From Sphingobacteriales bacterium (GTDB taxonomy: Bacteria; Bacteroidota; Bacteroidia; Chitinophagales; Chitinophagaceae), in the NCBI GenBank assembly GCA_023251235.1, contig JAHEZE010000004.1, positions 654 to 64,653 on the forward strand: 64,000 nucleotides of DNA. The letters run 5' to 3'. Below are positions 123 to 50,123 of the stretch, piece by piece. Every line of letters starts with the position of its first letter. The first letter of the stretch is position 1. The position numbers and the translations under genes were made by a program. The notes under the pieces are model-generated. The model saw only the letters and a program-made list of their open reading frames with translations, was not told the origin of the DNA and did not search any database.

Positions 123-1517
123 ATGAGTAAAGTTAAGACTGCTTTCTTTTGCCAAAATTGTGGTTATGAAAGTATAAAATGGAATGGCCAATGTCCGTCA
201 TGTGGACAATGGAACACTTTTGTTGAAGAATTGATCCGGAAAGAAAGCAAATCCGATGTGAATGGCTGGCAAGATTATAAAGAAGACAGAAAAATTCATA
301 AAACAATTTCATTGAATGAAATTGTTAGTTCCGAAGAAAACAGGATTATTACAGATGACGAAGAATTAAACAGGGTTCTGGGAGGTGGCATCGTACCGGG
401 CAGTATTGTCCTGGTTGCCGGAGAACCCGGAATCGGGAAATCAACTTTATTTCTTCAGGATGGTCTGCAGTTAAAAAAAAATACAATTCTTTACATCAGT
501 GGTGAAGAAAGTGAACAGCAAATAAAAATGCGGGCTGACAGATTGAATATTCAAAATGAAAATTTTTACCTGTTGACCGAAACATCAACTCAAATCATTT
601 TCCAGGAAATAAAAAAACTAAAACCGGACCTTGTAATAGTTGATTCTATCCAGATATTACAATCTCCCTACATTGACTCATCGCCCGGAAGTGTTTCTCA
701 AATCCGGGAATGTGCTGCCGAGTTCCAGCGATTTGCAAAAGAAACCAACACACCTGTTTTTTTAATTGGCCATATTACCAAAGATGGAAGTATTGCCGGC
801 CCGAAAATCCTGGAACATATGGTTGATACTGTGTTGCAATTCGAAGGAGATCGTCATTATGCATACCGGATTTTGAGAACCCTTAAAAATCGATATGGCA
901 GTACATCTGAGCTGGGTATTTATGAAATGACTGACCAGGGCATGAAAGCTGTTACAAATCCCAGTGAGATTTTAATTACCCAAAAAGAAGATCAACTTAG
1001 CGGGATAGCAATAGCAGCAACGATTGAAGGAATACGACCATTATTAATAGAAGTGCAGGCCTTGGTTACACAATCTGTGTATGGTACCCCGCAACGCACT
1101 GTCAGTGGATTTGATTTAAGGCGGTTACAATTACTTCTTGCTGTTCTGGAAAAAAAAGGTGGATTTCATTTTGGGGTGAAAGATGTTTTCATCAACATTG
1201 CCGGAGGTTTAAAAATTGAAGACCCATCCATTGATCTTGCTGTTTTATGTGCTTTGCTATCATCCTTTGATGATGCTCCTATACCCCATCATATTTGTTT
1301 TGCAGGTGAAGTTGGACTTAGCGGAGAAATAAGAGCCGTAAATAAAATTGATCAACGAATTGCAGAAGCCGAAAAATTAGGATTTGAAAAAATCATTGTT
1401 TCAAAGTACAACCAGAAAGGATTAGGTAAACAAAAATTCAACCTGCCTGACCGGCAGGCAGGCATTGAAATTGTAACGATGGGTCAGGTAGAGGAAGTGT
1501 ACAGATATTTGTTTTAA
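123..1517 (+). CDS. radA: DNA repair protein RadA/Sms
   Basis: 464-aa ORF with an N-terminal zinc finger (CQNCGYES..CPSCGQW), Walker A GEPGIGKST, an LKNRYG motif and a C-terminal Lon-like domain. It carries an in-frame GC-rich palindrome near its 3' end. Confidence 0.95.
   Translation: MSKVKTAFFCQNCGYESIKWNGQCPSCGQWNTFVEELIRKESKSDVNGWQDYKEDRKIHKTISLNEIVSSEENRIITDDEELNRVLGGGIVPGSIVLVAGEPGIGKSTLFLQDGLQLKKNTILYISGEESEQQIKMRADRLNIQNENFYLLTETSTQIIFQEIKKLKPDLVIVDSIQILQSPYIDSSPGSVSQIRECAAEFQRFAKETNTPVFLIGHITKDGSIAGPKILEHMVDTVLQFEGDRHYAYRILRTLKNRYGSTSELGIYEMTDQGMKAVTNPSEILITQKEDQLSGIAIAATIEGIRPLLIEVQALVTQSVYGTPQRTVSGFDLRRLQLLLAVLEKKGGFHFGVKDVFINIAGGLKIEDPSIDLAVLCALLSSFDDAPIPHHICFAGEVGLSGEIRAVNKIDQRIAEAEKLGFEKIIVSKYNQKGLGKQKFNLPDRQAGIEIVTMGQVEEVYRYLF
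1442..1464. repeat. GC-rich palindromic element copy 1 (cctgcctgaccggcaggcaggca), in frame inside radA
   Basis: Read directly. The 8-bp arms CCTGCCTG/CAGGCAGG flank a 5-nt loop. It shares CAGGCAGGCA with three other copies and is translated as LPDRQAG. Confidence 0.85.
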
Positions 1518-1577
1518 ATCCTCTATCCCTAAAGCAATTGAAACCCCAATGATAGACATTCGAAAAAGCTGAAATAA

Positions 1578-2279
1578 ATGATTACAATAAAGGAAATAAA
1601 AGATTCATTTCTCCATTTAGTTTTTCCTCATGTATGTGATGGGTGTGGCAGCGATATAATTAATGAAGAAAGCTGTTTATGTTTTCGTTGTCTTGCGGCT
1701 TTACCGGAAACAAATTTTCACCTTCACAGTGGGAATCCGGTTGAAAAAATTTTCTGGGGAAGAATTCCATTGGTTAGTGCTACCGCTCAATATTATTTTA
1801 CAAAAGAATCGCTGATGCAGCATCTCATGCATCTGTTAAAATACAAAGGCAACAAAGAACTTGGATTCCAGCTGGGCCGGTTGATGGGCATTGCTTTAAA
1901 AGAAACTAACCGGTTTAATACGATTGAGGCGTTGATCCCTCTGCCCCTCTTTCCTTCAAAAGAAAAAAAACGTGGGTATAACCAGGCTACTGTTCTCTGT
2001 GAAGGTATTGCTGAAATATTCCCTTTACCTGTGCTGAAAAATGTGGTTACCCGGCCGCAACATACAGAAACCCAAACTAAAAAAGGAAGGATTGATAGAT
2101 GGAAAAATATTGAAGGCAAGTTTGAATTGATGAATCCTGCCCTGATTAAAAATAAACATGTTTTATTGGTAGATGATGTTGTCACTACCGGAGCCACACT
2201 GGAAGCCTGCGGCCAGGAATTGCTTTCATCTGATAACACAAGGTTAAGTATCGCCACACTTTGTATTGCCTCCCGTTAA
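1578..2279 (+). CDS. ComF family protein (phosphoribosyltransferase domain)
   Basis: 233 aa with N-terminal Cys pairs (CDGCG, CFRC) and a C-terminal PRPP-binding loop VLLVDDVVTTGATL. Confidence 0.85.
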   Translation: MITIKEIKDSFLHLVFPHVCDGCGSDIINEESCLCFRCLAALPETNFHLHSGNPVEKIFWGRIPLVSATAQYYFTKESLMQHLMHLLKYKGNKELGFQLGRLMGIALKETNRFNTIEALIPLPLFPSKEKKRGYNQATVLCEGIAEIFPLPVLKNVVTRPQHTETQTKKGRIDRWKNIEGKFELMNPALIKNKHVLLVDDVVTTGATLEACGQELLSSDNTRLSIATLCIASR

Positions 2280-2390
2280 TGGTTAAGAGTATAAAGAAAA
2301 AAAGATTTTATAATATAGTAGAAGGCAAAACCTGAATTTTCGTTTGTTCTCATTTCCTCCTTTGGCCTCTTAGCTTTATTTTTGGTATCA

Positions 2391-3788
2391 ATGAAAACCC
2401 CCGGAATACTTTCAATATCCATTTTTATTCTTTTTTTTTCTTGCAAAAAAGACAGCTTTATTACCAGTTCAGATGCCCGGGTAACCATTTCTGCAGATAC
2501 ATTAAAATATGATACGGTTTTTACTACAACGGGAACTATCACCCAATCTTTTAAAATAATAAATGAAAATGATCAGAAGCTTCGTTTATCATCTGTAAAG
2601 CTGATGGGCGGGAACAGTTCCTCATTTAAAATAAATGTAGACGGTATAGTCGGTCCGCAGGTATCCAATATTGATATAGAAGCAAAAGACAGTGTTTATG
2701 TTTTTGTCTCGGTTAGTATTAATCAGTCTGCAGCCAACCTTCCATTTATAATCAGGGATAGTATCGGGGTTAGTTATAACGGTAAAGACCGGCTGCTGCA
2801 ACTGGAAGCCTGGGGTCAGAATGCTCATTTTTTCCGCAATAAACATATTTCAGCAAACGAAGTTTGGAATAATGACCTGCCCTATGTTATTCTTGGTTCG
2901 CTGATTGTTGATGCAAATAAAACCCTTACCATAAATAAAGGATGCCGGGTCTTTGTTCATGCTGATGCACCGGTAATCGTTGATGGCACATTACTGATAA
3001 ATGGATTGAAAGATACCATTGACCGTGTAAATTTTCGTGGCGACAGATTAGACGATCCCTACAAGGATTTTCCGGCAGGCTGGCCGGGTATTTATTTCAG
3101 TGAAAATAGTAAGGATAATATTTTTAATTATGCAGTAATAAAAAACGCTTATCAGGCCATTGCTCTTCAGGATCCTTCACCGAATGTCAATCCTAAATTA
3201 GTATTGAATGAATGTATTATTGATAATGCTTATGATGCCGGTATTATTACCATTAACAGCAGCATCAGGGCAAGAAATTGCCTGGTGAGTAATTGTGGCA
3301 AAAACCTGGTTCTTGCCAAAGGCGGCGATTATCAATTTACTCATTGCACCGTTGCAAGTATTTCCAATAGTTATATTTTGCATCGCAATCCTGTTTTATT
3401 TGTAAGCAATTATATTCTTGTAAATAATAGCCCAATTACTGCTAACCTCAATGCTGTATTCAGTAATTGTATTTTCTGGGGTGAAAATGGACTCGTAGAT
3501 AATGAAGTAATAATAGCAAAAAGCGGCAGCACTACTTTTAATGTCAACTTCGATTATAACCTATGGAAAGTTCAAACTCCGCCTGCCAATATCATAGCTA
3601 CCCAGGTAATAAATAACATGGCACCTGAATTTGACAGTATCAATATTTCAAAGCATTATTACAATTTCAGGCTTAAAGATACTTCCCCCGCAATCAATAA
3701 AGGTACCAATGCAGGCATAACTATTGATCTTGATGGTTTAGCAAGACCAGTAGGTCTGCCGGATTTGGGATGTTATGAAAAACATTAA
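2391..3788 (+). CDS. Secreted lipoprotein with parallel beta-helix-like repeats, function unknown
   Basis: ATG at 2391 gives MKTPGILSISIFILFFSC, which has a lipobox. The body is Asn/Gly/Ile-rich and periodic, typical of right-handed beta-helix proteins. The ORF track's 2382 start is a TTG. Confidence 0.5.
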   Translation: MKTPGILSISIFILFFSCKKDSFITSSDARVTISADTLKYDTVFTTTGTITQSFKIINENDQKLRLSSVKLMGGNSSSFKINVDGIVGPQVSNIDIEAKDSVYVFVSVSINQSAANLPFIIRDSIGVSYNGKDRLLQLEAWGQNAHFFRNKHISANEVWNNDLPYVILGSLIVDANKTLTINKGCRVFVHADAPVIVDGTLLINGLKDTIDRVNFRGDRLDDPYKDFPAGWPGIYFSENSKDNIFNYAVIKNAYQAIALQDPSPNVNPKLVLNECIIDNAYDAGIITINSSIRARNCLVSNCGKNLVLAKGGDYQFTHCTVASISNSYILHRNPVLFVSNYILVNNSPITANLNAVFSNCIFWGENGLVDNEVIIAKSGSTTFNVNFDYNLWKVQTPPANIIATQVINNMAPEFDSINISKHYYNFRLKDTSPAINKGTNAGITIDLDGLARPVGLPDLGCYEKH

Positions 3789-3864
3789 GACAACCTTGAC
3801 CAAATTATGACCGATTTAGAAATGAGATTATCTTAACTTCGATGTTCTTCTAAAATATTTTTTT

Positions 3865-4380
3865 ATGAAATCACTTTTTATCACCCTAATTCTTTCAGCC
3901 ACACTTACCGGCTCTATTTATGATTTTAAAGTTCCGGGGTTGGATGGAAATCAAATTGATTTTGCCGGCTACAAAGGCAAAAAAATTATGATTGTCAATA
4001 CGGCGTCATTTTGCGGTAATACACCCCAGTATAAAGACCTCGAAGCATTATATGAAAAATATAAAGACAAGCTGGTCATTATCGGTTTTCCCGCTAATAA
4101 TTTTGGCGCACAGGAGCCGGGTACAAATGGTGAGATTAAAGAATTCTGTACAAAAAACTATGGAGTTACTTTCCCGATGGCTGAAAAAATATCAGTATTG
4201 GGAGATGATACTGCCCCTTTATATAAATACCTGAAGGATGAAGCAGCAAAAAAAGGATTGGCTGATCCTGTAAAATGGAATTTTGGAAAGTTTTTACTGG
4301 ATGAACAAGGCAACCTGATTGCCACTTTCACTCCAAAGACCCAACCGATGAGTGAAGAAATTTTAAAATATCTGAATTAA
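3865..4380 (+). CDS. Glutathione peroxidase family protein (Cys type)
   Basis: 171 aa with a signal peptide and the motifs NTASFCGNTPQY and GFPANNFGAQEPG. Confidence 0.9.
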   Translation: MKSLFITLILSATLTGSIYDFKVPGLDGNQIDFAGYKGKKIMIVNTASFCGNTPQYKDLEALYEKYKDKLVIIGFPANNFGAQEPGTNGEIKEFCTKNYGVTFPMAEKISVLGDDTAPLYKYLKDEAAKKGLADPVKWNFGKFLLDEQGNLIATFTPKTQPMSEEILKYLN

Positions 4381-4405
4381 TATTTAAGGAAAATTAAAAA
4401 TATAG

Positions 4406-4433
4406 CGGTAAGAAAATTCTTACCGTTTTTTTT
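4406..4433 (+). terminator. Rho-independent terminator after the glutathione peroxidase gene
   Basis: An 8-bp perfect stem cggtaaga/tcttaccg with loop aaat, followed by a T8 run. Confidence 0.8.
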
Positions 4434-4461
4434 GTGTCAGGAATATTTACTTTCGCCTTCC

Positions 4462-5676
4462 ATGCAGTTTGAAAAAATCATTGGCCAACAGGAAGTAAAA
4501 AAACAATTGGTTGAACTGGTGCAGCACAACCGGCTGAGCCATGCTTTGCTTTTTTTAAGCAAAGAAGGTGGCGGAGCCTTATCACTGGCATTTGCGCTGG
4601 CACAATATATTACCTGTGAAAAGGCAAACCCCAAAAAACAAACAACAAATTCCACTGCCTCACTTTTTGGTGAAGAAAATCCAAGCTCCAACATTCAACA
4701 TTCAACATTTAACAATGACGCCTGTGGTACCTGCCCTTCCTGTACCAAAGCAAACCAACTCATTCATCCCGATATTCATTTCAGTTATCCGGTAGTTACA
4801 AAAAAATCCGGCACGCCCCCATTGAGTACAGATTATATAAGTGAGTGGAGAGAGTTTGTAAAAACATCTCCTTACGCAAATGTTTATGACTGGCTACAGT
4901 TCATCGGTGCGGAAAACAAACAGGGAAATATTACGGCGAATGAATGCAATGACATCATCCACAAACTGAGCCTGAAAAGTTTTGAAAGTGAATACAAGGT
5001 TCTCATCATGTGGATGCCCGAATACCTGGGCAATGAAGGAAATAAATTGCTTAAACTGATTGAAGAGCCACCACCCAATACTTTATTTATATTGGTTGCC
5101 GAAAATGAATCATTGTTGTTGCCCACAATACTCAGCCGCTGTCAATTGATAAAAATTCCTGCCCTTGAAACAGCAGACATTGAAAATGAATTGATAGGAA
5201 AACATAATGCTGCAGCTGCAAAAGCAAGACAAATTGCTGCCACCAGCGAGGGCAATTTCCGCGAAGCATTGCAGCTTTTGGAAAATGCGGAAGAAGATTG
5301 GCAGAGCCTGCTGCGGGAATGGTTGAACTCAATAATTAAAACAGGTCCCATAGCACAAACCAAGTGGGTGGAAGAAACAAGCCGGTTGGGGCGGGAAAAG
5401 CAAAAGCAGTTTCTTCGTTACTTTAATCACTTACTGGAGCAATCAATCCGTTCAAAAATTATGGGCAGTGCCAACCTGCTTCCGGATAATGAAAAAGATT
5501 TTGCAGCCAGGCTGAACAAGCTTGCAGACATTAGTCAGCAGCAGGCAATTATAGAAGAACTGGACAAAGCCACTTATTATATTGAACGCAATGCCAACTC
5601 CAAAATCCTCTTTCATGCCCTTACCATAAAGCTTTATCATATCATTCAGGACAAAATTGTATTTTTGACAACTTGA
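4462..5676 (+). CDS. holB: DNA polymerase III delta-prime subunit
   Basis: ATG at 4462 gives MQFEKIIGQQ. It has an AAA+ clamp-loader fold with a CxxC zinc module (ACGTCPSC), LLKLIEEPP and SRC motifs. A heptamer array lies just upstream of the zinc module. Confidence 0.85.
   Translation: MQFEKIIGQQEVKKQLVELVQHNRLSHALLFLSKEGGGALSLAFALAQYITCEKANPKKQTTNSTASLFGEENPSSNIQHSTFNNDACGTCPSCTKANQLIHPDIHFSYPVVTKKSGTPPLSTDYISEWREFVKTSPYANVYDWLQFIGAENKQGNITANECNDIIHKLSLKSFESEYKVLIMWMPEYLGNEGNKLLKLIEEPPPNTLFILVAENESLLLPTILSRCQLIKIPALETADIENELIGKHNAAAAKARQIAATSEGNFREALQLLENAEEDWQSLLREWLNSIIKTGPIAQTKWVEETSRLGREKQKQFLRYFNHLLEQSIRSKIMGSANLLPDNEKDFAARLNKLADISQQQAIIEELDKATYYIERNANSKILFHALTIKLYHIIQDKIVFLTT
4689..4716 (+). 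repeat. Heptamer tandem array (CAACATT x3 plus TAACAAT) inside holB
   Basis: Read directly: caacatt caacatt caacatt taacaat. It is translated in frame as SNIQHSTFNN. Confidence 0.8.
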
Positions 5677-5688
5677 TAAGTGAGTGGG

Positions 5689-5717
5689 GATTCGTGAATG
5701 GTAAAGTAATGTGAGAG
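5689..5717 (-). repeat. Short degenerate array of the ATTCACS family (reverse orientation) just after the holB stop
   Basis: The sequence gattcgtgaatggtaaagtaatgtgagag has a reverse complement containing ccattcacgaatc, identical to the end of the mutL array at 11419-11435. Confidence 0.5.
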
Positions 5718-5799
5718 ATAATTATTGAGTCATCGTCCGTCTATATATCAAACTTTAGTTGCGTCGCACACTTCGGCACCTGTAATGCTGCTAAGCAAA

Positions 5800-5845
5800 A
5801 TGCTGAATAGCGAAAAAAACGTACAAGGGTGTGACACAACAGAAG
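5800..5845 (+). repeat. 48-nt conserved element, copy C
   Basis: atgctgaatagcgaaaaaaacgtacaagggtgtgacacaacagaag aligns along its length with copies at 40282-40328 and 52236-52283. Confidence 0.8.
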
Positions 5846-5887
5846 CAAAATAGAATTATTACTGCCGGCTTCATAATTATCCCTCCT

Positions 5888-5922
5888 CAATTATTAATTC
5901 TTAATTACTAATTTTTAATTAT
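5888..5922 (+). repeat. Heptamer tandem array (TAATTNN x5) abutting the PSP1 gene start codon
   Basis: caattat taattct taattac taatttt taattat, then ctc ATG at 5926. Confidence 0.8.
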
Positions 5923-5925
5923 CTC

Positions 5926-7170
5926 ATGGGTTGCGGCAATTGCGGTACGGATAAACCAAACGGATGTAAAAGCAACGGCGGGTGCAGCACCGGCGGATGC
6001 AACCGTATGAATGCCCATGACTGGCTGGTCAATCTTCCCGTAGCTTTTGCGGCGGATGAATGTAAAGTGATTGAAGTTAGTTTTAATCATGGCAGCCGTA
6101 AAGATTATTTCCGTAATACTACTTTGCAGCATTTAGAAAAGGGTGATCTGATTTGCCTGGAAGGAGTAAGTGGTTTTGATTTGGGTGAAGTTTCACTTAC
6201 TGGTGAAATTGTTCGCATGCAAATGAAAAAAAAGAGCATTAAAGAAGATAATGCGGAAATGAAAAAAGTGTTGCGGCTGGCCAATGATCGTGATATTGAT
6301 ACCTGGCGGCATAGTAAGAGTAGAGAAAAAGATGCGATTATTCGCAGCCGTGCCATTACAAAGCAACTGAAACTGGCGATGAAGATTAGTGAAGTGGAGA
6401 TACAGGCCGATAGCCGGAAGGCAACATTCTTTTATATTGCCGAAGGTCGTGTGGATTTTCGTGAGCTGATAAAAGTATTGGCCGGTGAATTTAAAGTGAA
6501 AGTGGAAATGCGCCAGATCGGCGCCAGGCAAGAGAGTGCAAAAGTGGGTGGTGTTGGCAGTTGCGGCCGCGAATTATGTTGCAGTACATGGCTTACTGAA
6601 TTTAAATCAGTAAATACTGCCGCCGCCCGTTATCAGAATCTTTCTATTAATCAAACAAAACTAAGTGGCCAGTGCGGACGATTGAAATGCTGTTTGAATT
6701 ATGAACTGGATACTTACTTAGATGCATTACAACACTTCCCTGATAATTGCGATACTATCCAGGTGGTAAAAGGAAATGCATACCTGGTTAAAAAAGATAT
6801 TTTCAAAAACCTGATGTGGTACACCCTGCCCGACAGCAATAAGCAATACCCACTGTCTATTGAAAGAGTGAAAAAAATAAAAAGCCTTAATGTACAGGGA
6901 GTAATTCCTGAAGAACTGGAAGCAGTTGATCTTACTACTTCAAAAAACAAGGAAGCGGAAACGGCGTTTGTAGAACTGGTTGGCCAAATAAGCTTAAATA
7001 CGTTAGAAAAGGCAGATAAAAAGAAAAGACAACAGCAACAGCAAAGACAAAGACCTTCACAACAAAAAGGTCAGCAGCAAAATCCCAATCGCCAGCAGGG
7101 CAACCAGCAAAGAGAGCAGAATCCAAGGCGACCTAATCAACAACGACCCAATCAACAAGGGAAGAAATAA
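5926..7170 (+). CDS. PSP1 domain protein (RicT/YaaT-like)
   Basis: 414 aa with a Cys-rich N-terminus (GCGNCGTDKPNGCKSNGGCSTGGC), a PSP1 core (GSCGRELCCSTWL..GQCGRLKCCLNYE) and a Q/N/R/P-rich tail. Its position after holB matches the Bacillus holB-yaaT order. Confidence 0.8.
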   Translation: MGCGNCGTDKPNGCKSNGGCSTGGCNRMNAHDWLVNLPVAFAADECKVIEVSFNHGSRKDYFRNTTLQHLEKGDLICLEGVSGFDLGEVSLTGEIVRMQMKKKSIKEDNAEMKKVLRLANDRDIDTWRHSKSREKDAIIRSRAITKQLKLAMKISEVEIQADSRKATFFYIAEGRVDFRELIKVLAGEFKVKVEMRQIGARQESAKVGGVGSCGRELCCSTWLTEFKSVNTAAARYQNLSINQTKLSGQCGRLKCCLNYELDTYLDALQHFPDNCDTIQVVKGNAYLVKKDIFKNLMWYTLPDSNKQYPLSIERVKKIKSLNVQGVIPEELEAVDLTTSKNKEAETAFVELVGQISLNTLEKADKKKRQQQQQRQRPSQQKGQQQNPNRQQGNQQREQNPRRPNQQRPNQQGKK

Positions 7171-7187
7171 AGAATTAGAAATTTGTT

Positions 7188-27046: not shown

Positions 27047-28099
27047 ATGAATCTTCAAAACACCTTTGTAAGGGATAGGGGTCAGGTACTGGTAACAGGT
27101 GGAACCGGATTCATCGGAGCTTATATAATAAAAGAGTTAATTGAAAAAGGCTATACTGTCCGTGCAATCCGGCGCAGTAAAAAACCCGATGGCTATCGGG
27201 TTCCTTTTTTTATTGCTCCTGAAATTTTAAATAAAGTGGAATGGGTGGATGGTGATGTACTCGATGTTGTCTCCCTGGATGAGGCGATGAAAGATGTAGA
27301 TACAGTTATTCATTGTGCTGCGGTCATTTCTTTCTTTAAAAATGAAAGAAAAAATATGTACAGTGTGAATGTAGATGGAACTGCTAATATTGTAAATCTG
27401 GCGCTGGAAAATAATATAAAAAAACTAATACATATCAGTTCTATTTCAGCCCTGGGCAGAACAAAAAATGGAGATCATGTAAATGAAGAAAAGAAATGGA
27501 CGCAAAGCAAGCTTAATACCCACTATGGAATCAGCAAGTATAAAGCAGAAATGGAAGTGTGGCGGGCCATGGGTGAAGGATTAGATGCTGTCATAATAAA
27601 TCCAAGCACCGTATTAGGTTTTGGAGACTGGGACAATGGAAGTTCCGCAATATTTAAAAATATTTATACCGAATTCCCCTGGTACACTACCGGTATTAAT
27701 GGATTTGTTGATGTAGAGGATGTGGCGAAAGCAACGGTACTTTTATTGGAAAGTAAAATAACAGAAGAACGGTATATTATCAATAGTGAAAACTTAGTTT
27801 TCAAAAACTTGTTTGATATCATTGCCGGCAACTTTGGTAAAAAGTGTCCTTCCAGAGAAGCAACTCCCTTTTTAAGTGCAATTGCCTGGCGATTGGAGAA
27901 AATAAAATCTTTTTTTCTGAGAAGCAGGCCTTTGCTTACAAAAGAAACCGTAAGGATTGCTATGAGTAAAACTTTCTGGCAAAATGACAAATTACTTAAA
28001 GCTTTACCGGGTTTTACCTTTACTCCTTTGGAAAAATCCATTCAGCATATTTGCAAAAAATACGAAGAAGCCATAAAGAATATGCAACTAAATCTATAG
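27047..28099 (+). CDS. NAD-dependent epimerase/dehydratase family (extended SDR)
   Basis: ATG at 27047. It has VTGGTGFIGAYI and the catalytic YGISK (YxxxK). Confidence 0.8.
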   Translation: MNLQNTFVRDRGQVLVTGGTGFIGAYIIKELIEKGYTVRAIRRSKKPDGYRVPFFIAPEILNKVEWVDGDVLDVVSLDEAMKDVDTVIHCAAVISFFKNERKNMYSVNVDGTANIVNLALENNIKKLIHISSISALGRTKNGDHVNEEKKWTQSKLNTHYGISKYKAEMEVWRAMGEGLDAVIINPSTVLGFGDWDNGSSAIFKNIYTEFPWYTTGINGFVDVEDVAKATVLLLESKITEERYIINSENLVFKNLFDIIAGNFGKKCPSREATPFLSAIAWRLEKIKSFFLRSRPLLTKETVRIAMSKTFWQNDKLLKALPGFTFTPLEKSIQHICKKYEEAIKNMQLNL

Positions 28100-36159: not shown

Positions 36160-36188
36160 TATAAGAAAAATGGCAGGTGGCCTTGCCC
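36160..36188 (-). terminator. Possible terminator after cdsA (GGCAAGG/CCTGCC hairpin plus T-run on the minus strand)
   Basis: The minus strand reads gggcaaggccacctgcc followed by atttttctt. The stem has one bulge and resembles a degenerate copy of the CCTGCC/GGCAGG palindrome family. Confidence 0.4.
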
Positions 36189-38160: not shown

Positions 38161-38182
38161 CCTGCCGAATGGCAGGCAGGCA
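38161..38182. repeat. GC-rich palindromic element copy 2 (cctgccgaatggcaggcaggca), intergenic
   Basis: Read directly, between the CPBP protease gene and dusB. Confidence 0.85.
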
Positions 38183-38190: not shown

Positions 38191-38232
38191 CATTGAAAAT
38201 TGAACATTGATAATTGTGTATTGAACATTTAA
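38191..38232 (+). repeat. Heptamer array (NATTGAA x6) abutting the dusB start codon
   Basis: cattgaa aattgaa cattgat aattgtg tattgaa catttaa, then a ATG at 38234. It is the reverse-complement family of the TCAAT arrays. Confidence 0.8.
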
Positions 38233-38233
38233 A

Positions 38234-39274
38234 ATGATAAAAATCGGTAACATATCACTTCCTGATTTCCCTTTACTCCTTGCACCTATGGAAGATGTAA
38301 GTGATCCTCCCTTCCGTTCAGTATGTAAGGATAATGGCGCCGATCTGATGTTCACAGAGTTTATCTCCAGCGAAGGGTTAATTCGTGACGCAATTAAAAG
38401 CCGAAAAAAATTGGACATATTTGAATATGAACGCCCGGTTGGCATACAAATTTTTGGCGGTGATGAAGAAAGCCTGTCGCTGGCTGCCAAAATTGTTGAT
38501 GTAACTCAACCTGATTTACTCGATATTAATTTTGGTTGCCCGGTAAAAAAAGTGGCGTTACGTGGCGCCGGTGCCGGTGTACTGAAAGATATTGACCTGA
38601 TGGTTCGTTTAACTTCGGCTGTTGTACAATCAACTTCACTGCCTGTAACTGTAAAAACAAGATTGGGCTGGGATGATAATAATAAAAACATTGAAGAGGT
38701 GGCAGAACGGCTGCAGGATGTTGGGATAAAAGCGTTGGCTATTCACGGACGTACAAGAACACAGATGTATAAAGGCGACGCCAACTGGACATTAATTGGC
38801 AAAGTAAAAAATAATCCCCGCATCACTATACCGATTTTTGGCAATGGCGATATTGATTCTCCTGAAAAAGCTTTGGAATATAAAAACCGTTATGGTGTGG
38901 ATGGTATTATGATTGGCCGTGCAGCCATTGGCTATCCATGGATATTTAATGAGATAAAACATTTTATTAAATCAGGTGAGCATTTGCCTTCACCCACTAT
39001 TGATGACCGTGTTGCTGTTTGCCGTAAACATTTATATAAAAGTGTAGAATGGAAAAACTCTGTGGTAGGCATCAACGAAATGCGAAGGCATTATGCTAAT
39101 TATTTAAAAGGATTACCCAATATAAAAGAATATAGAAACAAATTAGTTACACTAAAAACCGTTGAAGAGATTGATGAGGTGCTGAATGATATTCTGAAAA
39201 ATTACGAGGGGTTTGAATTTGAAAAAATGGCAATTGAGTTAATTAACTATCACGAAAAATGCCCGGTGGAGTAA
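38234..39274 (+). CDS. dusB: tRNA-dihydrouridine synthase
   Basis: 346 aa with LAPMEDVSD, NFGCP and TVKTRLGW motifs. Confidence 0.9.
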   Translation: MIKIGNISLPDFPLLLAPMEDVSDPPFRSVCKDNGADLMFTEFISSEGLIRDAIKSRKKLDIFEYERPVGIQIFGGDEESLSLAAKIVDVTQPDLLDINFGCPVKKVALRGAGAGVLKDIDLMVRLTSAVVQSTSLPVTVKTRLGWDDNNKNIEEVAERLQDVGIKALAIHGRTRTQMYKGDANWTLIGKVKNNPRITIPIFGNGDIDSPEKALEYKNRYGVDGIMIGRAAIGYPWIFNEIKHFIKSGEHLPSPTIDDRVAVCRKHLYKSVEWKNSVVGINEMRRHYANYLKGLPNIKEYRNKLVTLKTVEEIDEVLNDILKNYEGFEFEKMAIELINYHEKCPVE

Positions 39275-39279
39275 TTCTG

Positions 39280-40281: not shown

Positions 40282-40328
40282 ATGTTGAATAGTATTACCG
40301 AACGTAAAAGTGAGTGACACAACAAAAG
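40282..40328 (+). repeat. 48-nt conserved element, copy A
   Basis: atgttgaatagtattaccgaacgtaaaagtgagtgacacaacaaaag. It directly abuts the gpx-like start codon (CAT|ATG). Confidence 0.8.
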
Positions 40329-40365
40329 TTGAAAAATGCGTTACAACTGATTTCAAAAAATATTT

Positions 40366-41769: not shown

Positions 41770-41785
41770 TCCCTAACTTAATGCC

Positions 41786-42793: not shown

Positions 42794-42854
42794 TTTTAAT
42801 TTAGAAACTTACTATCATCCGTTATAAAATGACTAAAGAATATTTTAAAAAAAG

Positions 42855-44195
42855 TTAGTCTATTATTCTTTTTGATTTCAATAACGGGTTTCTCCATACA
42901 ATGATCCGCCAGATTACCTCTGCAGACAATAATGCACTCAAGGCAAACAATGCCGGGGCAAACATTTTACCGGTGGATAAAAATGCGCTGGAAAGAGCAA
43001 TACAGTATACAGAAACGGGCAATAAAATTAAAAGGCATAATCCCGCTACATTAAGTGGAATTTTATAAGGACGGTGTTCATCTGGAAGACGTATGCGAAA
43101 AACAATCAGGCTGATGAATTCTAAAAACAATGCAGCGCCATAAAGTGTAACATCAATGATGATTAAATCCCCAAAGGTCCAGAAGATCATTCCACTTACA
43201 ACCAATGAGCAAACAATAATTGACAAATAAGGAGTTTTATATTTCGGATGTAGTTCCTGAAGTTTATCCGGGAGCAAATGATCATCGGCCATTGCTTTAG
43301 GAATTCTTGATACAGATAGTAAAACTGCTGAAAATAGGCCGAAAGCACTTGCCATACCCCCGGCGGCAATAAATATTGCCAGCCATTGGCCACCCACAAT
43401 TTTTCCCAATGAAGGGAAGCCTTTTTCATTTAATTCATTAAAATCAATTCCGGAATTTTGTACTGAGATAAGAACAATAAAATAAACAACAAGCACCATA
43501 AGAAATACAATTGCTGTTGAAATAAGATAGGTTCTTACCGGCTTATTTACTTCTTCTGAATAAGTAGTAGTATTATCCCATCCCATAAAATTCCACATCA
43601 GGGTATATATACCCATTCCCAGGGAAGAATAACTAAGGTTTTTTAATGATAAAGAAGGAATGGAAATATTCCCACCATGTTGTGAAATAACCATTCCGAA
43701 AAGAAGAATAAAAGGAATTAGAATAGCAATACTCAACAATACAGATGTTCTTCCTACCTGCACAATGCCAAGAATATTAAGACCTGCTCCCAGCCAGATA
43801 AGAAACAAACAAATCGGAATTTTATATTGAGCAATTTCAGGGAAAAAGAAAGATGCATATTCTACAAATAATACCGGGTAAATAGCAAGATCAACGAAAA
43901 TAGAAAACCAGGTCCACCAGCCTTCATAAAAAGCCCAGCGGATTCCAAGGGCTCTTTTTACCCATTGATAGTAGCCGCCTGTAATCGGCATCATGCAGTT
44001 TAATTCCATCACAATAAAAATGGTGGGTAAATCCCATAAGAGAGGAGTAAGCAGTAATAAGAGAAAAGCTGCATGCTGACCGGCATAAATCATCAACGGC
44101 TCTAATCCATAAGGGCCGCCGGAAACAGTACAGAATATTACTGCTGCCAGTGTGATAATTCGCAGGCCTTTGACTGATGTAGTAGTCTTAAGCAT
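42855..44195 (-). CDS. APC superfamily amino acid permease
   Basis: 446 aa with about 12 TM segments and the N-terminal SGGPYGLE motif. Confidence 0.8.
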   Translation of the reverse strand: MLKTTTSVKGLRIITLAAVIFCTVSGGPYGLEPLMIYAGQHAAFLLLLLTPLLWDLPTIFIVMELNCMMPITGGYYQWVKRALGIRWAFYEGWWTWFSIFVDLAIYPVLFVEYASFFFPEIAQYKIPICLFLIWLGAGLNILGIVQVGRTSVLLSIAILIPFILLFGMVISQHGGNISIPSLSLKNLSYSSLGMGIYTLMWNFMGWDNTTTYSEEVNKPVRTYLISTAIVFLMVLVVYFIVLISVQNSGIDFNELNEKGFPSLGKIVGGQWLAIFIAAGGMASAFGLFSAVLLSVSRIPKAMADDHLLPDKLQELHPKYKTPYLSIIVCSLVVSGMIFWTFGDLIIIDVTLYGAALFLEFISLIVFRIRLPDEHRPYKIPLNVAGLCLLILLPVSVYCIALSSAFLSTGKMFAPALFALSALLSAEVIWRIIVWRNPLLKSKRIID

Positions 44196-44313
44196 AAAAC
44201 GGTAAAACTATTGGAATGAAATTAAAAAAAACAAAAAAATTACTTTCATCAGTAGTGTGAAGACATGGAAGGCTTAGTTGCATAAAAAAGAAATTAGGTA
44301 ATTTCGATATGCT

Positions 44314-44751
44314 ATGACGGACGAATACTTTATGATGCAGGCGCTGAAAGAAGCAAGAAAAGCTTTTGATGAAGATGAAGTGCCGGTAGGAACAGTTGTT
44401 GTGGTAAATGAAAAAATAATTGCCCGGGGTCATAACATGGTGGAACGGTTGAATGATCCAACTGCACATGCTGAAATGATTGCACTTACTTCTGCATTTA
44501 ATTTACTGGGAAGTAAATATTTACCGGAGGCTGCTTTGTATGTTACGGTAGAGCCTTGTTTTATGTGTGCCGGAGCCATGTATTGGAGTAAAATCGGGAA
44601 AGTTGTGTATGGAGCCGAAGATGAAAAAAACGGGTATAAGAAAACAGCAGGAAGCAACTGGCCATTTCATCCTAAAACAGAATTAATAAGAGGGGTGATG
44701 AAAGAAGAATGCAGCAAGCTAATGAAAGATTTTTTTAAAAATAAAAGATAG
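44314..44751 (+). CDS. tadA: tRNA adenosine(34) deaminase
   Basis: 145 aa with the zinc motifs HAEMIA and PCFMCAGA. Confidence 0.9.
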   Translation: MTDEYFMMQALKEARKAFDEDEVPVGTVVVVNEKIIARGHNMVERLNDPTAHAEMIALTSAFNLLGSKYLPEAALYVTVEPCFMCAGAMYWSKIGKVVYGAEDEKNGYKKTAGSNWPFHPKTELIRGVMKEECSKLMKDFFKNKR

Positions 44752-44754
44752 TTT

Positions 44755-45078
44755 ATGGCAAAAAGTATTTCTAAAAAAATCATTGCCACTCATCCCCAAT
44801 CAAAAAGGGAAATGAAAATTGATGCTGCAATTTATAAACCTTTTGAAGCGGCCATCATTCAAAGCTTAAAAGGAAGTAAGGCCCGCCTGCCGGACAGGCA
44901 GGCAAAAACTTTTACAGAGTTGACAGATGCTGTAGCAAAAATTATTAAAAAGAAAATACCTGATTTTAAAAAATCAATTCCCTGGTACACCATCTCTATA
45001 CTTCGTGATTTGGAATCAAGAGGTGTTGCAGAAACTTTCTTTGAAAAAGGAATAAAACTGAACCGACTGAAAAAATAA
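44755..45078 (+). CDS. Hypothetical small protein carrying an in-frame palindromic element
   Basis: 107 aa and Lys-rich. I recognise no family. It is tightly packed, 3 nt after tadA. Confidence 0.45.
   Translation: MAKSISKKIIATHPQSKREMKIDAAIYKPFEAAIIQSLKGSKARLPDRQAKTFTELTDAVAKIIKKKIPDFKKSIPWYTISILRDLESRGVAETFFEKGIKLNRLKK
44886..44904. repeat. GC-rich palindromic element copy 3 (cctgccggacaggcaggca), in frame in the hypothetical CDS
   Basis: Read directly. It is translated as LPDRQA, in the same frame relative to the element as in radA. Confidence 0.85.
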
Positions 45079-45795
45079 TTACAGAGTTTTTATTTTAATA
45101 TTCTTAAAATAAACTCCTGTATTGGCAAATCCACTGTGTGTGGCTTGTAAAGCAATATAACCTGATTTAGCTGCGCCATAAGTTTTTACATCTTTCCATT
45201 TACCCGCTGCTTTTTGTGCTTTCCATTTGTCAGATCCTAATTCATACTCCACCACTTTCTTTCCATTCAGCCAATGTTCAACATGTCCTTTGTTCACAAT
45301 TATCCTGGTCTGGTTCCATTCACCGGGATTTCTGGTAGCATCAACAGAAGCTGGTTGCATTGCATAATTAGCAGCAGTCTTTTGCCAGTCTTCAATTTTA
45401 TCAGGATATCCTTTATCATCAATCAACTGGTATTCGGGACCACTTTCATAAGTAGCTTCATTATCTTCTGTTACACGAAAGAGGATACCACTATTGGACT
45501 TCGGTGAAATTTTCCAATCAATAGCAAGCTCAAAATTTTCGTACTTGTCATTTGTGATGATATCGGGATTTTTATTTCCGGCAGGTTTCTCGCTGCATAA
45601 TGTGCCATTTTTAACTTCCCATGATGAGCCGGGAATGTTTTTATATGCTCTCCATCCCTTCGTATCTTTTCCATCAAACAATAATTTCCAGCCGTCTTTC
45701 TTTTCAGCTTTAGTAAGTTTATTGTCTTTATTATCCTGGAAAGAGTAAACCAAAACTGATGCAGCCATAAGAATAATAACAGAAAGTGTTTTCAT
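45079..45795 (-). CDS. DUF1080 (3-keto-disaccharide hydrolase-like) domain protein
   Basis: 238 aa with a signal peptide and the signatures GWKLLFDGKDTKGWR, NSGILFR, EYQLIDD and HWLNG. Confidence 0.8.
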   Translation of the reverse strand: MKTLSVIILMAASVLVYSFQDNKDNKLTKAEKKDGWKLLFDGKDTKGWRAYKNIPGSSWEVKNGTLCSEKPAGNKNPDIITNDKYENFELAIDWKISPKSNSGILFRVTEDNEATYESGPEYQLIDDKGYPDKIEDWQKTAANYAMQPASVDATRNPGEWNQTRIIVNKGHVEHWLNGKKVVEYELGSDKWKAQKAAGKWKDVKTYGAAKSGYIALQATHSGFANTGVYFKNIKIKTL

Positions 45796-45807
45796 GTAAA
45801 TGTTTTT

Positions 45808-47175
45808 TTAGTTAACAAGTTTTAAGTTGATAGGATCCCATTTCACAGCTTTGTCAGTAAAGTAACTGTCATTACATAATAATGCAGGCGCAGCGGCACG
45901 GTAACCGAACAAGGCATCTTCTGAAGAAACTTTTTTATTGCGGATACAATTGAAGAAATTATAGAAATGGTCGTAATGTGCTCCTTTGTATCCTTCTTCA
46001 GCTTTGTAAATAGTTGAACTTGGCGGAACCATTTTTTTTCTGTCGTAGACAGTTTCTATTTCTTTATTCATTTTTGTTTTTAATAAAGGATCATCTACAG
46101 CTGCATAGGATTGATTTTTTGTAAGCGTTACTTTATCCCATTCTACATTCATACTTCCTTCATTGCCTACTAAACGCAGGTATGTACTGTCTGCTGTGCC
46201 ATCTACAAAATTTACCCGGAGTGATAAATTAAATGCAGGGTGTTGTTCTGTTTCGGCATAATCAAACATACCCATTAGAATGTCCGGCACTTCACGTCCA
46301 TCTTTCCAGTATCTTAAGCCACCCATGGCCATAATTTTTTGAGGACCCTTCGAATTAGTAATAAAATGAAGACTTGAAAACAAATGCACAAACAAATCAC
46401 CTGATACACCGGTACCGTAATCCCTGTAACAACGCCAGCGGAAAAAACGTTTGGCATCGAATGGTCGGTCAGGAAATTTATTCAAAAACATTTTCCAGTC
46501 AACTGTTTTATCAGATGCATCAGCAGGAATATCATATTGCCAGGCGCCAAAGGGTGAATTACGGGCCCAGAATCCTTCTGCATAATTTAGTTTTCCAATG
46601 GCACCGGCAGCTAATAATTCTTTTGCCTTTTCATTTCCCAACGAACTCATGCCCTGGCTGCCTACCTGCATTACAACTTTATTCCGGTTTTGCGCTTCCA
46701 CCACAGCATTGCCTTCCGATACTTCATGAACCATTGGCTTTTCACAATACACTGCTTTACCACTATTCATGGCTGCCACGGAAATATCTTTATGCCAATG
46801 ATCCGGTGTGGCTACAATTACTGCATCAATATCTTTTCGCTGTAGTATTTCACGATAATCTTTGGTGGTAAAAATATCTTTCCCATAATTCTTTTTTGCC
46901 GCTTCCAGCCTTCCGTCATAAAGATCACAGGCAGCAATGATTTTTGCACCAGGAACCGACATGGCAGTATTCCCATCAGCTGTTCCCATACCCCCAGCGC
47001 CAATCACAGCTATCTGTATGTTATCATTCGGGTTATAATAATTGCGAAGTAGTCCCTCAAAATTGTCCGGCTTTCCGGTAGCCTTAATAATACCCGGAAT
47101 AGAAGAAGCTAATACGCTGCCTGCTACTTTCTGGATAAATTTCCGCCGGGAGTTACTTGTTGATTCATTGCTCAT
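45808..47175 (-). CDS. Tat-exported Gfo/Idh/MocA family oxidoreductase
   Basis: 455 aa with a twin-arginine-like N-terminus (SRRKFIQKVAGS), a Rossmann VIGAGGMG and the EKP motif. Pairing with DUF1080 is common in Bacteroidota. Confidence 0.8.
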   Translation of the reverse strand: MSNESTSNSRRKFIQKVAGSVLASSIPGIIKATGKPDNFEGLLRNYYNPNDNIQIAVIGAGGMGTADGNTAMSVPGAKIIAACDLYDGRLEAAKKNYGKDIFTTKDYREILQRKDIDAVIVATPDHWHKDISVAAMNSGKAVYCEKPMVHEVSEGNAVVEAQNRNKVVMQVGSQGMSSLGNEKAKELLAAGAIGKLNYAEGFWARNSPFGAWQYDIPADASDKTVDWKMFLNKFPDRPFDAKRFFRWRCYRDYGTGVSGDLFVHLFSSLHFITNSKGPQKIMAMGGLRYWKDGREVPDILMGMFDYAETEQHPAFNLSLRVNFVDGTADSTYLRLVGNEGSMNVEWDKVTLTKNQSYAAVDDPLLKTKMNKEIETVYDRKKMVPPSSTIYKAEEGYKGAHYDHFYNFFNCIRNKKVSSEDALFGYRAAAPALLCNDSYFTDKAVKWDPINLKLVN

Positions 47176-47335
47176 ATTTTCTGTTTTGATAAATGAGGAA
47201 GGAAGTTACAGGAAAAAATCAAAAGCCAAGAAAACAAGTCTGTAGAAAATATTATTCCATTTCTCGAAAGACTTTTGCATGGCACATCAGTTATTCAAAC
47301 GTAAATTTGTTTTCCTGATAATATAACTTCCTTAT

Positions 47336-47369
47336 CCCCTTTTCCCAAAGGGATGCCTTTGGCAAGGGG
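47336..47369 (+). promoter_or_regulatory. Stable nested hairpin 21 nt upstream of the SOD start codon
   Basis: The outer stem is cccctt/aagggg (6 bp) and the inner stem is ccaaagg/cctttgg (7 bp) with loop gatg. No T-run follows on either strand. Confidence 0.4.
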
Positions 47370-47390
47370 TTAGGGACAAAAAATTAAACT

Positions 47391-48002
47391 ATGTCTTTTA
47401 CATTATTACCCCTTCCATATGCACACGATGCACTGGAACCGCACATTGACACCACAACAATGCAAATACACCACGGCAAGCACCATCAGGCTTATGTTGA
47501 CAATCTGAATAAGGCTATTGCCGGAACTGAACATGAGAATAAAAGCCTTGAAGACCTGGTGGCACATGCTGGAAAAATTTCTGCTGCTGTCCGTAATAAC
47601 GGTGGTGGTCACTGGAACCATACATTTTTCTGGGAAAGTATGGATGAAAATGCTGGCGGCATGCCTTCTGGTAATTTGGCCAAAGCTATTCATGATGCTT
47701 TTGGTTCATTTGAATCATTCAAAGAAAAGTTTGCCAATGCCGGAATGACAAGGTTTGGTAGTGGTTGGGCATGGCTGGGTGTGGATGCCAATAAAAAACT
47801 TTGTATTTGCAGTACGCCTAACCAGGATAATCCACTCATGGATGTGGCAGAAATAAAATGTACTCCTATTCTTGGAGTGGATGTATGGGAACATGCATAC
47901 TATTTAAAATATCAAAATCGCCGGGCAGAATATTTAGGAGCTTTCTGGAATGTGGTAGATTGGAAAAAAGTGGCGGAAAGATTTGAAGCCGCTACGAAAT
48001 AA
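47391..48002 (+). CDS. Fe/Mn superoxide dismutase
   Basis: 203 aa with HHGKHH, the metal ligands DVWEHAYY and GWAWL. Confidence 0.95.
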
Positions 48003-48021
48003 ATTTTTAATTAATGATTTG

Positions 48022-48051
48022 AAACTGCCCTGGAAACGGTGCAGTTTTTTT
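48022..48051 (+). terminator. Rho-independent terminator after the SOD gene
   Basis: The stem is aaactgc..gcagttt, followed by a T7 run. Confidence 0.7.
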
Positions 48052-48118
48052 ATTTCATAATGAGAATAAGGTGCAGCAAATAAAAAACTAACTTAGGTGT
48101 CCATTTAAAATCATTTGT

Positions 48119-49045
48119 ATGATCTGGAATGTAACCGGCGGTATTGGAAATACACCACTAATAAAGCTTCAGAAAATTGTTCCTGAAAATTCAGCCGGTG
48201 TTTTTGCAAAACTGGAATGGGCCAACCCGACAGGCAGTATGAAAGATCGTATGGCCAAAGCAGTTATTGAGTCCGCTGCTGCTAAAGGAAAAATAAATCC
48301 CGGGGATACGGTAGTGGAATATACTGCCGGCACTACGGGGGTTTCGCTTGCTTTTGTTTGTGCCGCTATGGGGTATAAATTTCATGCTGTGTTTTCAGAT
48401 GCTTTCAGCGATGAAAAAAGAAGAACTATGCAGGCTTTTGGTGCACAGATTACGGATGTGAAGAGTGATAATAAAAAAATTACTGAAGCCCTGATCAAAG
48501 AAATGATTGCTACTTCAAAAAAATTAAGTGAACAATCCGGACATTGGTGGTGTGACCAATTGAACAATCATGATGCGTCGAAGGGTTATCATGCTTTGGG
48601 AGAAGAAATATGGCAGCAGATGAATGGCAAAGTGGATGCATTTGTCCATTGCGTAAGCACCGTACATTCAATTCATGGAACAACTGAAATTTTATGGCAG
48701 CATGATAAAAATATTCATATCGTGGCAGTTGAACCGGATGAATCAGCTGTATTATCAGGCAGAGCCACCGGCTCTCATAAAATTGAAGGAATTGGCATTG
48801 GTTTTATCCCACCTCTTTGGCAACCCGAAATGGTGAATGAAATAGCCACTGTAACCACCGAAGAAGCCAAAAGCATGGCAAGGAGACTGGCAAAAGAAGA
48901 AGGCATATTTGCAGGTACATCTACCGGAGCCAATGTTGTAGCGGCCTTACGAATTGCAGAAAGATTAGGTAAGGGGAAAAATGTTGTTACCATTATAGTT
49001 GACTCAGGCTTGCGTTATCTGAGTACAGATGTTTACAGGTATTAA
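48119..49045 (+). CDS. Cysteine synthase family PLP-dependent enzyme
   Basis: 308 aa with the PLP-lysine motif NPTGSMKDR and the GTSTGAN loop. Confidence 0.85.
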
Positions 49046-49272
49046 GGCACAGGATCATAGCCGCTACCACCCCAGGGATGACAACTGGAAATTCTTTTGA
49101 TCGCAAGCCACATTCCTTTCACAAGCCCATGTTTCTTTAATGCTTCTGCTGCGTAATGTGAACAGGTAGGAGTATAGCGGCACTTAGGTCCGAGTATGGG
49201 AGAAATAACCCACTGATAAATTTTTATCAATGCAATAAATGGAAGGCTAAGAATTCGTAGAAATGTTTTCAT
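49042..49272 (-). CDS. yidD: Membrane protein insertion efficiency factor YidD
   Basis: Motifs [18 protein letters not shown] and [11 protein letters not shown]. The ATG is at 49272; the ORF track's 49275 start is a TTG. Confidence 0.9.
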
Positions 49273-49669
49273 CAATCATCTTTGATAGCTTTTGTAAAGT
49301 TACCGCTACTTTATCTTTTATGAGTAGGTATGCAGGAAGCTCCTTGCCTGTATAAATAATGAAAACATTCAGTTGTTTATTTCCCGCTTTCAGTTCTTCT
49401 TTTAGTTCATTTTTTTGCAGCCGCCAGGCTTCTTTAATTAATCTTTTAATCCGGTTCCTGTCAACAGCCTTATTAAAATTCTTATTGGAAACTCCCACTC
49501 CAAATTGCAAAATGTTTTGTCTATTGTCCACTGATCTTTGACTATCGATGAGATAGAAAATTCTAAATGGCCCAACGACAAACTTCTTCCCTGCACTGAA
49601 CAATAGTTCAATTTGTTTCCGGCTCTTCAGTCTTTCATTTTTCCCAAGAGTAAATTGCCTCTTCATCAT
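49247..49669 (-). CDS. rnpA: Ribonuclease P protein component
   Basis: 140 aa and basic, with the RNR motif ([13 protein letters not shown]). It lies downstream of rpmH and overlaps yidD. Confidence 0.85.
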
Positions 49670-49670
49670 T

Positions 49671-49708
49671 TTACAAAAATAAAATAGTCCCGCTTTAACG
49701 AGACTATT
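49671..49708 (-). terminator. Hairpin plus T-rich tract between rpmH and rnpA
   Basis: The stem is aaatagtc/gactattt (8 bp) plus 2 inner bp. On the minus strand it is followed by ttatttttg. It could be an attenuator or terminator. Confidence 0.5.
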
Positions 49709-49753
49709 TACAAATATTAAAACTTCCTAAGCCCCCTTTAGGGGTTGGGGTTT

Positions 49754-49918
49754 CTATTTCGCTTTTCTTTCGTCAGAAACGGTCAATTTCGTACGGCCTT
49801 TTTTACGACGACTGGCTAGCACCTTACGGCCATTAGCAGTTTGCATACGCTTACGAAAACCATGCACTGATTTACGGCGACGCTTATGGGGCTGATAGGT
49901 TCTTTTTTTTCCTGGCAT
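49754..49918 (-). CDS. rpmH: 50S ribosomal protein L34
   Basis: It is not in the ORF track because it is under 60 aa. Manual translation gives [54 protein letters not shown], and the order is the canonical rpmH-rnpA-yidD. Confidence 0.9.
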
Positions 49919-50101
49919 AAAAATTATTTTTTCCTTTTACAAAATCCCCGTTATGAAACGGGCTTAACAAATCTTCTCAATGGGAACACCACTTCCCACT
50001 GATTGTGAAAGGACGGCAAAGGTAGGGGAACAGGCTCAGAAGTGCTAAGCAGAAATAAGAATTTTATTAATCCAACTTTTGTAATACTTCTCATTGTTCC
50101 T

Positions 50102-50123
50102 TGCCTGCCTGCCGGTAGGCAGG
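50102..50123. repeat. GC-rich palindromic element copy 4 (reverse orientation), intergenic
   Basis: The plus strand reads tgcctgcctgccggtaggcagg. The reverse complement reads cctgcctaccggcaggcaggca. Confidence 0.85.

Follow-up and report, generated by a model that had tools for sequence, protein, structure and literature searches.

Rickettsia palindromic elements (RPEs) are roughly 100–150 bp long and confined to Rickettsia, and the palindrome-associated transposable elements (PATEs) derived from IS200/IS605 exceed 100 bp, differ between their left and right ends and enter the DNA on the 3′ side of a fixed tetra- or pentanucleotide. The small dispersed repeats SDR4–6 of filamentous cyanobacteria, on which Elhai and co-workers reported in 2008, are said to be hairpin-forming dispersed repeats of 21–27 nt, present or absent at orthologous sites and with no transposase identified. 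Ultra-short invasive elements were reportedly described from fungal mitochondria by Koll and co-workers in 1996. We know of no settled account of how the classical repetitive extragenic palindromes (REPs) spread. A GTAG or CGTC tetranucleotide is conserved at one end of the REP (PMC3733652), and intragenic REPs place in-frame copies in open reading frames (ORFs), with genes for replication and repair prominent among the hosts (Di Nocera et al. 2013, PMC3733652). The mitochondrial GC clusters, or ultra-short invasive elements, of fungi are organellar and mostly 30–45 nt long, and target-site duplications have been reported for them (Wu & Hao 2015, PMC4478555). Here we describe a family of GC-rich palindromes of 20 or 21 nt, four copies of which lie in a stretch of 64,000 nucleotides (the window, G000:C109:654-64653). 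The source genome, G000, comprises 3.23 Mb in 181 contigs with 37.5% GC, and its radA gene places it among uncultured Chitinophagaceae metagenome-assembled genomes.

We read the four palindromes as copies of a non-autonomous, ultra-short mobile DNA element of REP/SDR-like kind, and assign this reading a probability of about 0.8. An enzyme specific for its sequence or structure would move the element in trans by acting on the hairpin form of single-stranded DNA, and the copies would then be filtered by selection on the reading frame.

Insertion of the palindrome as a whole unit

An earlier note on this DNA had singled out four occurrences of the 10-mer CAGGCAGGCA, against a chance expectation of about 0.1. 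All four were found where it had placed them, with 0.09 expected from dinucleotide shuffles, and the pattern CCTGCC-N2-6-GGCAGG likewise occurs four times in the window against an expectation of 0.00. A scan of the window with one mismatch allowed gave no loci beyond the same four (shuffled mean 0.2), and Rfam at gathering thresholds detected no known RNA family there. Each copy folds into the proposed GC hairpin of 6–8 bp, at −11 to −14 kcal/mol, and copies 1 and 3 do share a reading frame in their host ORFs, giving LPDRQA(G/K). Once boundaries had been refined from empty sites, the units measured 20 or 21 nt (Table 1), so the proposed length of about 20 nt stands, while the 3′ CA of the 10-mer belongs to the flank and lies outside the element. 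A supposed degenerate relative in the cdsA terminator (36172-36187) had to be dropped: its arms, GGCAGG..CCTTGCC, run G-rich first and are thus of opposite polarity, it folds at −5 to −7 kcal/mol, and a terminator scan left it uncalled.

Orthologues in congeners establish that these palindromes are insertions. The motif is missing from the corresponding genes of most relatives and hence does not represent conserved host protein sequence, the possibility that the earlier note had left open for alignment to decide. Clean 21-nt indels account for 13 of the 15 ORF-located copies compared, those in radA and in a 107-amino-acid (aa) ORF included. When a concatenated query of 17 ORF copies was searched in five congeners and the orthologous stretches were aligned, 13 loci were recovered, 11 of them clean 21-nt indels; the C159 locus is complex, with a second hairpin family alongside, and C48:1871 is native coding sequence (HPALRAG) with no insertion. 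No target-site duplication was found at any of the 13 clean empty/filled pairs. The unit was inserted whole, with exact ends and without duplication of its target.

The window copies illustrate this in different settings. Copy 1 is an exact 21-nt block with TTCAA before it and TATTGAA after it, lying in the C-terminal Lon-like domain of RadA just past residue 435, the last that aligns with the Streptococcus pneumoniae protein. It is absent from 13 of 15 same-genus radA genes, and also from those of other families of the order and from S. pneumoniae RadA. Copy 2 is a 20-nt indel relative to the congener G013, and at the same spot G003 and G002 bear different hairpins. Copy 3 is a net insertion of 21 nt relative to six congeners, turning KGSK-G-KTF into KGSK-ARLPDRQA-KTF. 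For copy 4, five congeners have no such hairpin, in a spacer too diverged to yield an exact empty site.

The radA gene has been a repeated target. Eighty Chitinophagaceae radA genes were compared on a single-gene tree, built without the insert columns and with many weak nodes. The 21-nt palindrome occupies one site (A, after VSKYN) in 9 of the 80 genomes and another (B, after KQK(F/Y)N) in 4; parsimony requires seven changes at site A and four at site B, of which well-supported branches alone force at least three and at least two. Near-identical genomes differ in its presence (L144 versus L092 and L100; L085 versus L089 and L098), and older radA copies show decay, as in L082 and L136. The sequence AA-CCTGCCTGCCGGCAGGCAAGG-T of L130 and AA-CCTTGCCTGCCGGCAGGCAGG-C of L144 contain exact reverse complements at the same radA nucleotide, which must stem from independent events. 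Both hot spots have AAAT(A/T)CAA^ in common. Insertion thus occurs in either orientation, mostly beside sequence rich in A or T, and the same nucleotide of radA has been hit more than once. The radA site TTCAAT^ATTGAA and the locus C79:4140 had prompted the idea that the element enters the tip of pre-existing AT-rich palindromes; this was rejected as a general rule, flank complementarity being not above that of random sites.

Sequence, sorting and spread of the family

The excess suspected from the window in the earlier note extends to the whole genome. CCTGCC-N0-12-GGCAGG occurs at 61 distinct loci of G000 against about 2 expected from 6-mer frequencies, far above a composition-corrected expectation. 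The core, CCTGCCTGCC followed directly by GGCAGGCAGG, is a perfect 20-nt palindrome (consensus CCTGCCTGCCGGCAGGCAGG) ending in CCTG on one side and in CAGG on the other. The 21-nt variants, which are recurrent, have a single additional base next to the central CCGG, at the loop, or take the form CCCGCCTGCCGGACGGGCAGG; many loci share a sub-variant, CCTGCCTACCGGACAGGCAGG and CCCGCCTGCCGGACGGGCAGG being examples. The consensus has no GTAG/CGTC end tag, GTAG being found only in the loop-proximal stem of the CCGGTAGG variant. Copies are singletons, not doublets.

The two lengths differ sharply in where they are found. By our own heuristic gene calls (2781 ORFs, 90% of G000), 32 of the 61 copies lie in ORFs, 24 of these in ORF interiors, while 28 are intergenic and one straddles an ORF edge; the non-coding 10% of the genome holds a 4.6-fold excess of copies (p 1e-12). 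A single frame, LP-x-G-x-Q-(A/G), is shared by 22 of the 32 ORF copies (p 5e-5). ORF interiors contain none of 17 20-nt forms against 11 of 16 21-nt forms (Fisher 2e-5), and those 20-nt copies that do fall within called ORFs lie at most about 80 nt from the longest-ORF start or are separated from the stop by a few codons. A Y1-transposase-like gene of G009 is frameshifted by a 20-nt copy. Selection sorts the copies, such that 20-nt units survive only outside ORFs or at ORF ends and 21-nt units inside ORFs. To judge from the intact frames, the latter would be translated as seven residues, mostly LP-x-G-x-Q-A/G, in tolerant loops. One helicase-like ORF of G000 (C6:14428-16824) has taken up at least three different repeats, comprising two CCTGCC-family members, a CCCCTCTCC..GGAGAGGGG hairpin and a heptamer array. 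Across the genome, copies show no consistent placement relative to gene ends and no regular T-tail, and T-runs follow only a minority of them.

Eighteen congeners differ in copy number, with counts of 1 to 80 hits per strand. The 21-mer form, with at most one mismatch, is present in 35 of 151 genomes of the family (34 of 150 genera; control 0), and the exact 20-mer in 20 of 201 Bacteroidota genomes, the carriers belonging to several families and also to other classes (control 0). In IMG/VR, 35 stretches contain the exact 20-mer and 10 the 21-mer; the contigs have 38–68% GC, and several bear 4–7 copies each; composition-matched controls (reversed 21-mer, reversed 20-mer and polarity-swapped palindrome) all gave 0. 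From these matches it follows that the element is not confined to one genus and occurs on phage-like DNA, apparently of very different hosts. BLAST of PLSDB plasmids and INPHARED phages with a two-copy stretch returned only chance-level imperfect matches, a result that carries no weight for cultured phages or plasmids. The complete genome G061 packs 14 copies into 40 kb (G061:C2:1196000-1235999; L251, L252), most of them in inter-ORF spacers. The neighbouring genes (ispG, metH, recR, a ClC channel and others) are of the ordinary housekeeping type, and a prophage or island behind this cluster was therefore rejected.

Other repeats share these genomes. A second ultra-short palindrome family, (T)CCCGATAGCTATCGGG(A), is represented in the window at 27185-27200 (C109:27838) and has about 70 copies in the genome, 21 of them in ORF interiors. 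The frameshifted Y1-like gene of G009 also bears an in-frame 18-nt insert of this second family, TCCCGATGGCTATCGGGA (VPMAIG), and a related copy sits in the radA gene of L104. Further enriched hairpins of G000 include CCCCT-NN-AGGGG (about 97 copies), CTCCCC..GGGGAG, CCTCTC..GAGAGG and TCCCGC..GCGGGA. All enriched stems place pyrimidines mainly in the 5′ arm and purines mainly in the 3′ arm, and the opposite polarity is not enriched.

Heptamer arrays are a further companion. Copy 2 adjoins a degenerate ATTGAA(C) array (window 38191-38232), and other copies abut or lie inside such arrays at C6:16382-16420 of G000 and at the viral loci L216, L239 and L245; the heptamers in high-GC viral contigs are GGTGAGA/GGTGAAA. 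An obligatory association was rejected, since only 2–3 of the 61 G000 copies are adjacent to an array, against a control value of about 1%. Within-genome BLAST, used to look for a longer conserved element around copy 4, returned only the core together with a loose GTACAAGAGTG(C/T)GAC context at a few loci. This motif precedes a CTGCC..GGCAG hairpin and is followed by GC(A/G)CAA. It may represent a separate element or an RNA, and it recurs at several spacers, one of which, on C166, is upstream of a LepA-like ORF.

Table 1. Coordinates of the palindrome copies, their host genes and other loci (window numbering unless a contig of G000 is given)
Feature	Position	Strand	Remarks
Copy 1, 21 nt, CCTGCCTGACCGGCAGGCAGG	1442..1462	.	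in radA, reads (N)LPDRQAG; exact insertion
Copy 2, 20 nt, CCTGCCGAATGGCAGGCAGG	38161..38180	.	divergent spacer upstream of ORF 38234-39274
Copy 3, 21 nt, CCCGCCTGCCGGACAGGCAGG	44882..44902	.	in 107-aa ORF 44755-45078, reads ARLPDRQA
Copy 4, 20 nt, CCTGCCTGCCGGTAGGCAGG	50104..50123	.	spacer upstream of minus-strand ORF ending at 50167
radA, intact host of copy 1	123..1517	+	464-aa open frame; S. pneumoniae RadA (5lkm) E 2e-142
107-aa ORF, host of copy 3	44755..45078	+	open frame, conserved in insert-free congeners
Sites filled in both G000 and G013	C14:36937, C53:16523, C77:27771, C95:940, radA		
Y1/RAYT-type genes of G000	C140:133-594, C166:641-1075, C6:13589-14047, C24:27800-28423		
GTACAAGAGTG(C/T)GAC sites	window 50124-50150		minus strand
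GTACAAGAGTG(C/T)GAC sites	C75:15010-15027, C164:11132-11149, C154:466-491, C166:1306-1321		

Candidate movers and rival explanations

Because the element has precise ends, makes no target duplication and offers a hairpin as substrate, an HUH/Y1 transposase resembling the REP-associated tyrosine transposases (RAYTs) is the leading candidate mover, though a tentative one. G000 encodes four Y1_Tnp-type genes, each with its own flanking hairpins in a REPtron-like arrangement; these hairpins (GCGTTCC..GGAACGC, AGCCCAYGG.., GCTCC..GGAGC and ACTTTGCCAAAGT) have 2–9 genome copies each. In G162 (L177), a Y1 gene lies beside an array of 15 GCGTTCC..GGAACGC hairpins. The element itself is found inside the 3′ flanking hairpin of two paralogous RAYT genes of G085 and about 100 nt downstream of one Y1 gene of G204. 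Y1_Tnp is present in 28 of 35 element-positive versus 67 of 116 element-negative genomes (odds ratio 2.9, p 0.018, uncorrected for relatedness).

Several results weigh against a mobile element served by such an enzyme. Among about 55 Y1_Tnp loci in 13 genomes, no gene has the element on both sides, and the hairpins, where seen, are the gene's own and different. The element lies near a Y1 gene in four cases in all (L040, L188, L192 and L254), those of G085 and G204 among them, only as an insert or on one side, and in L040 the insert disrupts the gene. G170, 96% complete and with 6 copies, yields no Y1_Tnp match even at E 0.01; in the complete G061, which holds at least 12 perfect copies, the Y1-like ORFs are all weak and have unrelated palindromes on their flanks. 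Neither pooled nor oriented 21-mer flanks contain a fixed target motif; the sole signal, at position −1 (A 49%, T 4%), is at odds with the exact hot spots. At the five sites occupied in G000 as well as in G013, the element shows 2 differences in 105 positions versus 18.6% in the flanking coding DNA (P 1e-7). Simple neutral selfish DNA does not predict such a gap, which calls for re-insertion, homogenisation or selection on the hairpin.

The palindromes might be an ordinary REP family moved by a RAYT/Y1 of its own genome, the cognate gene being not adjacent or not assembled. We regard this as possible, at odds well short of even. It would draw on the four Y1_Tnp-type genes, on the single polarity (pyrimidine-rich 5′ arm, purine-rich 3′ arm) common to the abundant hairpin families and the RAYT-flanking hairpins, on the mild association with Y1 presence and on the copies in the 3′ flank of the paralogous G085 RAYTs; REPs within genes, frequently those of repair, have moreover been published before (PMC3733652). 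Yet the RAYTs of G000 have their own local hairpins of 2–9 copies, two-sided flanking by the element is absent from all of the roughly 55 RAYT loci, and G170 has copies and no Y1_Tnp match. Nor do the palindromes show a GTAG/CGTC end tag or the doublets known as REPINs (REP doublets forming hairpins), and about half of them lie in ORFs. A dedicated, still unrecognised non-RAYT enzyme system would be a more daring explanation, and we consider it rather unlikely; it would move the 20/21-nt palindrome, keep it uniform and re-target the same sites in either orientation, with phages carrying it between hosts. If this were true, the element would rank among the smallest mobile DNAs, conserved letter for letter across Bacteroidota classes and high-GC phage contigs.

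Identical sequence at unrelated loci is hard to explain without a copying process, and this bears on the improbable view that the hairpin is a functional signal (a terminator, mRNA-stabilising or protein-binding) kept by selection, with the ORF copies as by-products. That view gains from the 28 of 61 copies in the 10% non-coding DNA (p 1e-12), from shared-site copies being far better conserved than their flanks, from the 14 spacer copies between housekeeping genes within 40 kb of G061 and from the T-runs after some copies. It loses by copies in ORF interiors, by either orientation at one site, by the 80-fold variation in copy number among congeners and decayed copies in some lineages, and by the inconsistent position relative to gene ends and irregular T-tail. 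Slightly less credible again is the capture at DNA breaks, by end joining, of an abundant 20/21-nt hairpin or self-annealed duplex oligonucleotide. Exact unit ends, the missing target duplication, both orientations, a weak target consensus and the lack of a transposase linked to the element would all suit such capture; the exact radA hot spots would not, nor would the CCTGCCTACCGGACAGGCAGG and CCCGCCTGCCGGACGGGCAGG sub-variants at many loci, which look as if copies themselves had been copied, and nothing came to light that could supply such an oligonucleotide. One locus of the 61, the native coding sequence at C48:1871, may be put down to chance, base composition, a conserved peptide motif or an assembly artefact. 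For the family as a whole these explanations are refuted by the counts (about 0–2 expected versus 61 observed) and by the empty sites in relatives; in addition, reversed and polarity-swapped controls gave 0 in more than 350 genomes and IMG/VR, and its carriers include complete genomes as well as assemblies produced by many unrelated studies.

If the reading as a non-autonomous mobile element holds, a seven-codon hairpin unit would repeatedly introduce small insertions into essential proteins, among them RadA, helicases and biosynthetic enzymes, and would affect gene prediction and protein comparison in a large family of soil and water bacteria. The purging of 20-nt units from ORFs versus the retention of 21-nt units amounts to a clean natural experiment. 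Exact hot spots, insertion in both orientations and without target duplication, the lack of a cognate transposase and a sequence that is letter-perfect in distant hosts and phages point to an as yet unrecognised mobilising activity. Finding the mover would clarify how REP-like and SDR-like micro-repeats spread.

Comparison with known systems

Like SDR4–6, the element is a hairpin-forming dispersed repeat, present or absent at orthologous sites, with no transposase identified and with heptanucleotide arrays in the same genomes. It differs in phylum and sequence, in its frequent residence in the frames of housekeeping genes, in the strict sorting of 20 versus 21 nt and in a heptamer adjacency that is only weak in G000 (2–3 of 61). 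PATEs resemble it in hairpin substrate, precise ends and absence of target duplication. No fixed target like theirs was found for it, only an A bias at −1, though the radA hot spots share AAAT(A/T)CAA^. The likeness to RPEs raised in the earlier note holds as behaviour, in that palindromic repeats sit in frame in intact ORFs and are translated (for the present element, as the frames suggest); the element is far shorter, at 20/21 nt, and extends across Bacteroidota and phage contigs. Intrinsic terminators differ from it in that T-runs accompany only a minority of its copies and many copies lie inside ORFs. Like the mitochondrial GC clusters, it is a short GC-rich palindrome that invades an AT-rich genome, turns over quickly and has no known enzyme; unlike them, it makes no target-site duplication.

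The closest parallel is offered by the REP/REPIN-RAYT systems (PMC3733652; Bertels & Rainey 2011, PMC3116915), which likewise consist of GC-rich palindromes (REPs of 20–40 nt) in many copies, variable between related genomes, without coding capacity, presumably moved in trans and in some cases in frame within ORFs. The present element has no tag, forms no doublets, lies in ORFs in about half of its copies and flanks no RAYT on both sides; its mobile unit is a single 20/21-nt palindrome, and the RAYTs that are present carry other, low-copy hairpins. The kind of element is already in print: in behaviour the palindrome resembles intragenic REPs (PMC3733652), mitochondrial GC clusters (PMC4478555) and the cyanobacterial SDRs. 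Since it departs from REP/RAYT systems in tag, cognate RAYT, extragenic location and doublets, we class it apart within this known kind.

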